Shown: positions 61,353 to 64,000 of the stretch, piece after piece
Position numbering within the stretch: position 1 is the first letter of the stretch
Layout of the letters: each line of letters opens with the position of its first letter
From: Escherichia phage vB_EcoM-G3F7
Sequence record: MZ234035.1
Direction: 5' to 3' (one strand)
DNA length: 64,000 nucleotides
Program-made: the position numbers and the translations under genes
Notes under the pieces: model-generated
What the model was told of the DNA's origin: nothing
The model's database searches: none
The model's input: the letters and a program-made list of their open reading frames with translations, nothing else

Positions 61353-62107
61353 TTATACTCTTGGACCATATATTGCTCCAACATTTTGCCATGTTGGAGC
61401 GGACCCTATGACAGCATAACCAGCAGCGCCGCCATTATATTCAGATCCTTGACCGCGAATATTGCATCTACCTCCCGCGGAACCTACTTCACCACCGTTT
61501 CCACCATTATAGATACCATTCACGGATCCTGAGCCAGGTGCAGAAATAGAATAGATCCTCCTGGCGCACCAAAAGGACGACCGCCACCACCACCAAAGGT
61601 CAATCTCATTCGTGAAAAAGGAGAATAATATCCGCCGCCGCCACCGCCGCCACCGCCTGCAATAGCTCCGCCATTATTAATTCTTAGTCTCCCACCAATA
61701 TCGTTTTGAATACAATGACCTCCAGCTGAGCCAGGACTATTGCTACCGCCATTACCTCCACGACCATACATCGTTACGCCATGTATATTTAACTGAACAT
61801 ATTCATTTGGTGTATCTCCGTACATGAAGAATAAAGGAACATCTTTAGAATAAGAAACGATATCACCAACAATATTGAATACAATAGGTGCACCGCCAGC
61901 TTCAAAGCATCTATCACGGAACCACTGACCATTAAAATTGTGGTTTGCTCCTACAGTATGAATAATTTCTCGTGAGCGACCTGCAAATTGACTCATCCAG
62001 CAAGGAACACCCAATCTTAATTGACCAGCCGCTTGACTCATCCAGCGCTGTCCTGTTTCATTTGCGGCTGAACTTCCAATCCAACCAGGAACACCAACTA
62101 CTGCCAT
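61353..62107 (-). CDS. 38: long tail fibre adhesin gp38 (T2-type, Gly-rich), apparent frameshift
   Basis: N-terminal 195 codons ([13 protein letters not shown]..., poly-Gly) stop at 61520; Gly-rich C-terminal part continues in another frame to stop 61353-61355. Confidence 0.8.
61632..61658 (-). repeat. GC-rich triplet repeat encoding poly-Gly in gp38
   Basis: CCGCCGCCGCCACCGCCGCCACCGCC tract in an AT-rich genome. Confidence 0.6.
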
Positions 62108-62122
62108 AATTTATACTCCAAA

Positions 62123-62137
62123 GGGGGCATTTCCCCC
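62123..62137 (-). other. GC stem-loop between genes 37 and 38
   Basis: GGGGG-5 nt-CCCCC in the 36-nt gap between gp37 stop and gp38 RBS. Confidence 0.4.
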
Positions 62138-62143
62138 TTGTTG

Positions 62144-64000
62144 TTAGAATTTAAAATATTTACTAATTTTGCGAGCAATTTTAGTAAAGAGAGGCGTTTT
62201 CAATTCTTTAATTTCTTCACTCATTTCCTGAATAGCCTTAATTAAAAGAGCATTCACAGCAGAGTTAGAAATTGTCAGAACATCAGATCCATCAACTTCA
62301 ACTTTAGATACAGCTTCCGGTAATTCCTTTTCAAGGTCCTGAGCAATAATACCAACTTCACGTTTAATAACACTACGGTCTTTAATAGACTTAACTTTAT
62401 CGTAAATATAAACTTTCAGTCGGCAAACTTTTTCGACTGCTCCATATTCTAATTCTTCTTTATTAATCTTGAGACGGGAGTCAGAACGAATATACACATC
62501 GCTAAAGCTACCATTTCCTGGTGTATAAAAGAATCCATCATGATGGAATTCAAACACAGCTTGTGGGTGTCCAGCATCAGGAGAAGCCTCCGTGGATCCG
62601 ACACGAATGATTGCTTGCCCCCACTGTGATGGAATACGACGCATACCAAAGTCAACAGCGGTGCTATATCCTTGATTGGTTATAACGCTTCTTGCTTTAA
62701 GAATAGGATAATAACTATCTTGACCAACATAACCATGATCAACGAATAATGGAGCTTCTACTCGCCATTGGTTGCCCCAATCACCCGGTTGTCTAGCAAT
62801 CCATCCAGAACCGTTAATGTGTACACGGTCACGGTTAACGTTAACCATTGCGGTATTTTGCGGGTTTAACGCAATCTCACCATTGTTTGTGATATGTACT
62901 GCCGCCTGAGAAGCATAGCTATAAAATGCTAGCGAATTATCAGCACCACCCTTGCCAATATACCAGTTACCAGTCCCGTCTATGTCACCGCGAATATGCA
63001 AAGAATTACTAGCAGTTGTTGATAATACAATAGAATCATTAGGTGCATTGATTGTTAACCGACCTGTCATCGTATCACCGCCTTTACCTAGGCGAGTATT
63101 CAAGGCAGCATCTAAATTGGTTGCATCGTTGTATTTCTTCCAGATTGAACCAGCAATGTTACCATCAGTGTTCAAGAATGCTGCGCCAGCATAAACTCGG
63201 CTTTGTGACATGAATCGGCCAGACGGCAAGAAACGCCATATAGCTAATTCAGTGGCTGTAGTTCCAGTAGCGGATAAATCACCCTGAGCAACGATACGAT
63301 ATTCTGAACTAGCAATATCCATACCAGAAGCCATAGTAATATTTGTTACAGTGTTTTTCTGTTTAACAATTGGCGCAAACTGGTTTTTATTTGAATCGTC
63401 AATAGCCTGATATAATGGCGCAATGGTAGTATTCTGATTTGCGTAAGTATTAGAACCAGAACCGCTAGCAGGGGCTTGAATATATGCTCCTGGAGCAAGT
63501 GAAATTTTCTGATTAGCACCAAGATTAACAGCAGCAGTGATATTCAGCAATCCCCTAAAGTTTTGTTGAGCAGTCCAAGTGTGTGATCCGTCTTCAAGAA
63601 CAACACGACGACAAGTATTAGTCCTACTTCCTGGATTACCAGCGATACGAACAACGAAATAACGATAGTTCGCCTGAGATACAGTACCGCGCCACACTTG
63701 AACAGTTCGACCCGTTCCGGTATGTTCGCTAGGACCGACAGAAAACATAACCAGGTTTCCATCAATCGTGCCCCAATCCATATTTGCTGGCATATTCTTT
63801 ATTTTGTTCAAAGGAACACTAAACATACTACCAGGGACAAAATCAAAGGTTTGCCAATCTAACTCCGCTAATTGAGCTTTAATACCACCCATACCCAAAG
63901 TAATTGGCAGAGAATAAGATGTATATACTTCGTTCCATGCACCCCACGCACCACCAGTATATGCACGCTCAAAAATACGATCGCGAGTAGTTGCACCCGT
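62144..64000 (-). CDS. 37: long tail fibre distal subunit gp37, 3' portion (5' end beyond window)
   Basis: Frame open from window edge to stop 62144-62146; Ser/Thr/Gly/Asn-rich fibre repeats; C-terminal chaperone-like domain. Confidence 0.85.
   Translation of the reverse strand, partial: TGATTRDRIFERAYTGGAWGAWNEVYTSYSLPITLGMGGIKAQLAELDWQTFDFVPGSMFSVPLNKIKNMPANMDWGTIDGNLVMFSVGPSEHTGTGRTVQVWRGTVSQANYRYFVVRIAGNPGSRTNTCRRVVLEDGSHTWTAQQNFRGLLNITAAVNLGANQKISLAPGAYIQAPASGSGSNTYANQNTTIAPLYQAIDDSNKNQFAPIVKQKNTVTNITMASGMDIASSEYRIVAQGDLSATGTTATELAIWRFLPSGRFMSQSRVYAGAAFLNTDGNIAGSIWKKYNDATNLDAALNTRLGKGGDTMTGRLTINAPNDSIVLSTTASNSLHIRGDIDGTGNWYIGKGGADNSLAFYSYASQAAVHITNNGEIALNPQNTAMVNVNRDRVHINGSGWIARQPGDWGNQWRVEAPLFVDHGYVGQDSYYPILKARSVITNQGYSTAVDFGMRRIPSQWGQAIIRVGSTEASPDAGHPQAVFEFHHDGFFYTPGNGSFSDVYIRSDSRLKINKEELEYGAVEKVCRLKVYIYDKVKSIKDRSVIKREVGIIAQDLEKELPEAVSKVEVDGSDVLTISNSAVNALLIKAIQEMSEEIKELKTPLFTKIARKISKYFKF

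Follow-up and report, generated by a model that had tools for sequence, protein, structure and literature searches.

Gene 37, gene 38 and the region between them

The window, that is, the whole 64,000-nucleotide stretch of DNA analysed here, belongs to a T-even phage with a tail fibre of the T2/T6/S16 type and is matched by 533 Tequatrovirus-like records. When compared with GenBank MZ234038.1 (Escherichia phage vB_EcoM-G3F10, species Tequatrovirus gee4498), it was found to be equal at every base except for one 28-bp deletion. Gene 37, encoding the distal subunit of the long tail fibre, lies on the minus strand and runs past the window end at position 64000, so that only residues 365 to 982 of the 982 residues of gp37 are held in the window. 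Its frame is open from position 64000 to a TAA stop codon at 62144-62146 on the same strand, and the encoded part is identical to the "tail fiber" coding sequence of MZ234038.1, which has 982 residues there. gp37 matched PHROG 1699 "long tail fiber protein distal subunit" (E = 3.8e-119), and its open reading frame also matched the Pfam model gp37_trimer (PF20744). On the same strand, 3' of gene 37, we found a gene for a gp38-type adhesin and a holin T gene (Phage_holin_T in Pfam, E = 1.3e-116). The features of the region are collected in Table 1.

Table 1. Features at the 3' end of gene 37 and in gene 38 (window coordinates)
Feature	Position	Strand	Remarks
Gene 37, 3' part (long tail fibre distal subunit)	62144..64000	minus	residues 365-982 and stop
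D-V-Y-I-R codons, predicted end of mature gp37	62486..62500	minus	residues 865-869; conserved strand before the scissile bond
gp37 C-terminal intramolecular chaperone (IMC)	62147..62485	minus	last 113 residues; begins S-D-S-R-L-K
Ser870 codon, predicted catalytic and scissile-site serine	62483..62485	minus	PF13884 position 1
Lys875 codon, predicted general base of the Ser-x4-Lys dyad	62468..62470	minus	PF13884 position 6
Peptidase_S74 core match	62309..62485	minus	PF13884 profile positions 1-57 of 58
Predicted long C-terminal alpha-helix of the IMC, likely trimeric coiled-coil core	62156..62266	minus	AlphaFold, low confidence
Cationic amphipathic tail PLFTKIARKISKYFKF	62147-62194	minus	end of the gp37 IMC
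Hairpin AGGGGG-AAAUG-CCCCCU	62122..62138	minus	between gene 37 stop and gene 38 Shine-Dalgarno
Gene 38 Shine-Dalgarno GGAG	62116-62119	minus	
Gene 38 ATG	62105-62107	minus	
Gene 38 (adhesin), 5' portion	61520..62107	minus	186 native residues, then LFLHLAQDP and stop
Gene 38, 3' remnant, out of frame	61353..61523	minus	last 56 adhesin residues; GP38 positions 166-218, E = 5.2e-13

The 5' portion of gene 38 retains an intact N-terminal attachment domain (Gp38_N, PF21721, E = 4.8e-20), and it matches the Gly-rich GP38 domain (PF05268, E = 4e-53) over profile positions 1-142 of 218, with the first Gly-rich motifs intact. The 28-bp deletion relative to MZ234038.1, with its junction at 61549/61550, causes a frameshift behind residue 186 (of 260) and, as written, truncates the adhesin to a 195-residue product that lacks the last 74 residues of the Gly-rich receptor-binding domain. 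The out-of-frame remnant that follows shows no difference from the corresponding end of gp38 in G3F10. Therefore, the Gly-rich adhesin that the original prediction had placed next to gp37 is present as an adjacent gp38 gene with both of its domains recognizable and its attachment part whole, but it is not full-length in this sequence. The deletion was absent from all 71 phage records matching the junction, and over the 64 kb nothing else separates the window from MZ234038.1; it may therefore have arisen as an artefact or edit at the sequence level and not biologically.

The RNA between the two genes folds into a hairpin (-17.3 kcal/mol, z = -2.0). We considered this hairpin as a coding-strand terminator, but the consensus scan gave no call there, as the stem is followed by only three U.

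A Peptidase S74 domain at the C-terminus of gp37

Judged by its translated sequence, gene 37 encodes at its 3' end a Peptidase S74 intramolecular chaperone (CIMCD, IMC or ICA), with a likeness far beyond chance. The domain comprises the last 113 residues of gp37 (12.9 kDa and pI 8.9, computed) and sits, as an exchangeable module, at the extreme C-terminus of the fibre protein. The profile PF13884 (Peptidase_S74, "chaperone of endosialidase"), whose curated gathering cut-off is 22 bits, scored 40.8 bits on the 584-aa open reading frame (E = 2.8e-10) and 43.6 bits on the last 125 residues of gp37 (E = 3.6e-11), where the match begins exactly at the serine of Table 1. These scores bear out the original prediction, which had seen in the end of gp37 a likeness to the self-cleaving C-terminal chaperone domains of phage fibres and had proposed a search of this kind. 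The gp37 peptide that it quoted lies where it was placed, on the minus strand, and the interval that it marked (62144-62540) consists of the stop codon, the 113-residue domain, the 18 residues that end the mature fibre, and a single additional base.

The same domain was found in many other fibres and spikes. PF13884 is present in all but one of 22 database homologues, and a tblastn search with the domain recovered 1343 phage records, most of which cover at least 80% of it; those records range over T-even, T5-like and Klebsiella phages and the pneumococcal PblB. The 113 residues also match 29 PHROG families of fibres and spikes at their very C-terminal ends, in the last ~100 profile positions. 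NCBIfam holds no model for this domain or for gp37. A GFP-gp38 fusion (9V85) that appeared as the top PDB profile hit was discarded as spurious, the alignment having been contaminated by one gp38-gp37 chimeric protein call (P0019).

The predicted fold points, at low confidence, to the same family. AlphaFold monomer models were made for the last 185 residues (19-sequence alignment; mean pLDDT 42, unusable) and for the last 125 residues (mean pLDDT 53), the latter being used for Foldseek as a positive-hit test only. Both low-confidence models contain one long helix, residues 86-122 of the 125-aa fragment, in agreement with the downstream helical segment that had been predicted, and the monomer model would place it at the end of a helix, hairpin, helix, hairpin, long helix topology. 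Against 350,542 PDB chains, the top 11 hits of the low-confidence model were S74/ICA chaperones only (7DC3, 3GW6, 3GUD): the MyRF ICA 7DC3 came first (E = 1.6e-4, TM 0.53, 20% identity), the endoNF (K1F) chaperone 3GW6 had E = 0.016, the GA-1 chaperone 3GUD had E = 0.024, and T5 4UW8 stood at rank 14. MyRF, to which the GIIAQ...LPEAV motif also points by a weak sequence hit, is a eukaryotic membrane-bound transcription factor, in which cleavage releases a nuclear fragment and does not serve fibre maturation. Because both AlphaFold models are of low confidence, the fold hits are suggestive of S74/ICA membership.

It could be argued that the S74 likeness is a chance or low-complexity match and that these residues are no more than the end of the fibre shaft, for which the one point to be made is the shortness of the Pfam model (58 positions). 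However, E values of about 1e-10 to 1e-11 at scores above the curated threshold already refute this explanation, and both the 1343 phage records with their coverage of the domain and the independent fold hits go against it as well; we give it practically no credence.

The cationic tail that closes the IMC, PLFTKIARKISKYFKF, is amphipathic (hydrophobic moment 0.67, net charge +5). Of the 21 homologues in the alignment, only the closest (P0001) shares it, while the others finish in ...AELAELKATK or ...IEAKLG. The tail may merely lengthen the coiled coil. That the freed 12.9-kDa fragment has a second activity through it, e.g., membrane association or gp38 loading, seems to us very improbable.

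The Ser-Lys dyad and the predicted cleavage site

The S-D-x-R-x-K region to which the original prediction drew attention reads S-D-S-R-L-K in gp37 and places a Ser-x4-Lys dyad at the N-terminal edge of the domain. In order to compare the dyad with those of known members, we fetched three whose processing is documented in publications, namely T2 gene 37 (X04442), T5 ltf/pb1 (NC_005859) and the K1F gp17 endosialidase (NC_007456), whose C-termini score 61.3, 40.8 and 39.7 bits, respectively, with PF13884. Profile position 1 is occupied by Ser870 in the window, Ser1243 in T2 gp37 and Ser1264 in T5 pb1, and position 6 is occupied by Lys875, T2 Lys1248, T5 Lys1269 and K1F Lys916; K1F Ser911 falls on position 1 only by extrapolation, because the K1F match begins at position 5 (residue 915). 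In a MAFFT alignment, Ser870 and Lys875 share columns with T5 Ser1264/Lys1269 and K1F Ser911/Lys916, and the G(I/L/V)xAQ motif is lined up as well, as is the terminal helix. In the alignment of 21 homologues, Lys875 is invariant, Ser870 is at least 90% conserved, and the surrounding NDVYIR-SD-R-LKIN is almost invariant. When the homologue alignment was compared by hhalign with the single T5 pb1 and K1F C-termini, no significant match was obtained (probabilities below 1%), and for T5 the aligned stretch was SDxRLK only; what ties gp37 to T5 and K1F is the Pfam model, together with the multiple alignment and the fold hits. The gp37 tip upstream of DVYIR shows no sequence homology to T5 or K1F.

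The chemistry of this dyad has been described for T5 pb1, in which the bond cut is Thr1263-Ser1264, S1264A abolishes autoproteolysis, the serine is activated by Lys1269, and an arginine of the adjacent chain makes correct trimer folding a requirement for cleavage (PMC4690869). The upstream Arg (contributed by a neighbouring subunit) and Asp described for T5 and K1F as an oxyanion hole or "folding sensor" have no recognizable counterpart in gp37, whose tip is not homologous to theirs. By homology, the predicted cut in gp37 is Arg869/Ser870 (DVYIR/SDSRLK, the slash marking the bond), which would convert the precursor of 107.0 kDa and 982 residues into a mature gp37 of 94.1 kDa and 869 residues.

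A separate host or phage protease, instead of the protein's own Ser-Lys dyad, might also cut off the C-terminus of gp37. The work on T2, in the form in which it is cited in PMC3157838, established processing, and to that extent it is compatible with this alternative. However, T5 pb1 and the K1F endosialidase are cleaved when E. coli produces them in the absence of further phage proteins, and replacing one serine by alanine blocks the reaction (PMC4690869); the window gp37 has the identical Ser-x4-Lys in the identical profile register. We therefore regard a separate protease as extremely unlikely and keep to autoproteolysis by the Ser870/Lys875 dyad.

The relatives of this gp37 differ in how much they share with it. 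Among the closest ones are the fPS phages, which have the same gp37 subtype and for which the predicted site DVYIR/SDGRLKI differs by one residue from DVYIR/SDSRLKI of the window (Salem et al. 2021, PMC7917993); the cleavage site of this subtype had thus already been predicted by those authors. IMC sequences 100% identical to that of the window occur in phages a48 and PYps32T. Compared with the fPS phages, a48, PYps32T and MZ234038.1, gp37 has no substantive difference, and the window alone has the 28-bp deletion in gene 38.

Among solved structures, the best phmmer match was 6F45_A, the gp37 of S16 (E = 4.8e-4), aligned from the S/SDRRIK site to the C-terminus. Like the window protein, S16 gp37 (PDB 6F45; Dunne et al. 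2018) has a 113-residue C-terminal S74 domain, and the two share the Ser-Asp-x-Arg-x-Lys start, the G(I/L)IAQ motif, the terminal helix (a predicted one in the window) and a directly downstream gene for a Gly-rich gp38 adhesin with a conserved Trp-bearing N-terminal attachment domain. In PMC7917993, the S16 chaperone is given as the last 113 residues, autocleaved at DLNVS/SDRRIKK to expose the gp38 docking surface. The detectable similarity between S16 and the window is confined to the IMC, whereas the mature tips upstream of the last five residues are unrelated; the strand before the cut is DVYIR in the window and DLNVS in S16, and the cationic amphipathic tail of the window IMC is missing from the aligned S16 fragment.

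T2 gp37 (X04442) has the same arrangement, with a C-terminal PF13884 domain from Ser1243 (...NVYIR/SDIRLK) followed by an intergenic stem-loop and gene 38. Its domain is about 43% identical to that of the window, but it has 99 residues and lacks the basic tail. The element in the T2 record equivalent to the window's intergenic hairpin is annotated "stem-loop structure; pot. transcription terminator". The C-termini of T2 and T6 gp37 are proteolytically cleaved before gp38 caps the fibre (PMC3157838, citing Drexler, Riede and Henning 1986).

T5 pb1 and the K1F endosialidase belong to the same Pfam family, keep the Ser/Lys register and have the domain as the C-terminal part of a trimeric fibre or spike, although the domain has 133 residues in T5 and about 153 in K1F, compared with 113 in the window. 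In the place of the 50-Å beta-hairpin "tentacles" of T5 (an extra 20-40 residues), the window domain has a short hairpin in the predicted model. Their client domains also differ: one is a "bullet" that binds the receptor, the other an enzyme stalk, and a separate adhesin caps neither of them afterwards. The T4-type tip is built differently. There, the gp37 needle itself binds the receptor and has no IMC, gp38 is a lambda Tfa-like chaperone, and gp57A is a separate chaperone, an arrangement described as a replacement by lambda-derived sequences (PMC3157838). The gp37 of the window ends in an S74 domain and its gp38 is of the adhesin type. The S74 domain of gp37 is already known, with a mechanism established for S16, T2, T5 and K1F.

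Probable maturation of the fibre tip and docking of gp38

According to these homologues, three gp37 chains would associate via the helical core of the chaperone domain, and the chaperone trimer would nucleate and register the folding of the upstream intertwined, beta-structured tip. After correct trimer folding, the Ser870/Lys875 dyad would cut Arg869-Ser870 in each chain; the 113-residue fragment of 12.9 kDa would then dissociate, leaving an 869-residue gp37 (94 kDa) that ends in ...DVYIR. Eventually, one gp38 would cap the exposed threefold tip, attaching by the tryptophan "prongs" in its N-terminal helical bundle. We consider it very probable that this combination of an S74 chaperone, trimer-dependent autocleavage at Arg869-Ser870, fragment release and gp38 capping is the best joint explanation of the locus, the last three being what we infer from the homologues.

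The picture agrees with the tip architecture that the original prediction had deduced, namely a cleaved gp37 carrying gp38 as the adhesin, which is also the architecture given for S16, T2 and T6 in the literature (PMC7917993, PMC6851490, PMC3157838). The accompanying statement that the tip is the main host-range determinant could be followed in part. It holds for the gp38 hypervariable loops, which carry the specificity (PMC3157838), and for the fit of the gp37 tip with the gp38 N-terminus, from which fibre-adhesin compatibility results (PMC3157838), but not for the chaperone, which would be discarded and is no determinant itself. Overall, the interpretation of the gp37 end as a self-cleaving chaperone is supported by our analysis. 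Because gene 38 is frameshifted in the window, capping by gp38 may give no functional adhesin for this exact sequence. If the deletion is real, a gp38 cut short behind residue 186 would be expected to lack function, seeing that T6 amber mutants in the Gly-rich motifs were isolated by their dependence on a suppressor host (PMC3157838).

The S74 homologue might instead stay uncleaved in this phage and remain on the virion as the permanent end of gp37, e.g., as a platform for gp38. The co-variation of gp37 C-terminal subtypes with gp38 N-terminal subtypes, together with the older lock-and-key reading of it (PMC3157838), would suit such a platform. Against it, both dyad residues are conserved, S16 gp37 loses its 113-residue domain and receives gp38 on the surface thus laid bare (PMC7917993, PMC6851490), T2 and T6 gp37 are processed (PMC3157838), and the uncleaved form of T5 is inactive in competition assays (PMC4690869). 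A permanently retained domain thus appears quite improbable, and we retain cleavage followed by gp38 docking as the preferred explanation.

The strand directly before the predicted cut may serve in this docking. DVYIR, which aligns with DLNVS of S16, is almost invariant in the 21 homologues, although the parts that precede it change in a modular way; in the homologue alignment, the conserved DVYIR-plus-chaperone module follows at least three unrelated tip types. We propose the DVYIR strand as the gp38 docking face, a role taken from PMC7917993. In S16, crystallography of the cleaved gp37 trimer bound to gp38 showed that three conserved tryptophans of the gp38 N-terminal bundle enter pockets in the gp37 base that are related by symmetry (PMC6851490). 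Salem et al. (2021, PMC7917993) noted that the domain preceding DVYIR has no relation to the tip domain of S16, so the mosaic junction would pass through the DVYIR strand.

From this analysis, the Arg869/Ser870 site, if cut as predicted, would mark where the mature fibre actually ends distally, and the DVYIR strand would be the mosaic junction between varying tip domains and one shared chaperone and gp38-docking module. For recombinant tips and host-range engineering, the 113-residue chaperone would consequently be needed in the construct for folding, while it would be absent from the product.

Deletion in the adhesin gene

Comparison of window bases 1-64000 with bases 1-64028 of MZ234038.1 (Escherichia phage vB_EcoM-G3F10) revealed no mismatches, and the sole difference between them is a 28-bp deletion in gene 38, which encodes the adhesin. 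On the coding strand, the bases absent from the window read GATATGCAATCAGGCGCGACTGGCGGTA. The deletion shifts the reading frame past residue 186 of 260, leaving a truncated product of 195 aa and an out-of-frame remnant of 56 aa, the GTG of which overlaps the new TGA of the truncated frame. Because both copies of the CTATT flanking the deletion are still present, a microhomology origin does not look likely. None of the 71 matching phage records carried this deletion, and the phage collection searched held no entry equal to the exact window sequence.

Some of the product names in the MZ234038.1 GenBank record are unreliable: ten unrelated genes in a row are called "thioredoxin," small open reading frames are labeled "molybdenum ABC transporter," and gp37 is named just "tail fiber," with no mention of its chaperone domain.

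Features of the gene 37/38 region
Feature	Position	Strand	Remark
Gene 38, deletion-bearing adhesin gene	61353-62107		Junction 61549/61550
G/C-rich hairpin AGGGGG-AAAUG-CCCCCU	62122-62138	minus	Between gene 37 stop and gene 38 Shine-Dalgarno
Final 16 gp37 residues, PLFTKIARKISKYFKF	62147-62194	minus	Predicted helix

C-terminal tail of gp37

The predicted helix that ends gp37 is strongly amphipathic with a charge of +5, and it is specific to this chaperone subtype, being missing from most of the other aligned gp37 subtypes. One profile search was contaminated by P0019, a gp38-gp37 chimeric call. This 303-aa predicted protein comes from a 25.7-kb contig of an "Escherichia coli" assembly and may represent a recombinant, a misassembly, or a gene-calling artifact.

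Hairpin between genes 37 and 38

The 66-nt region enclosing the intergenic hairpin (62095-62160) has a folding energy of -17.3 kcal/mol, and the counterpart of this hairpin in T2 is annotated as a "potential terminator." We speculate that the hairpin may act as a partial terminator or a translational brake, which would fit the 3:1 stoichiometry of gp37 to gp38.
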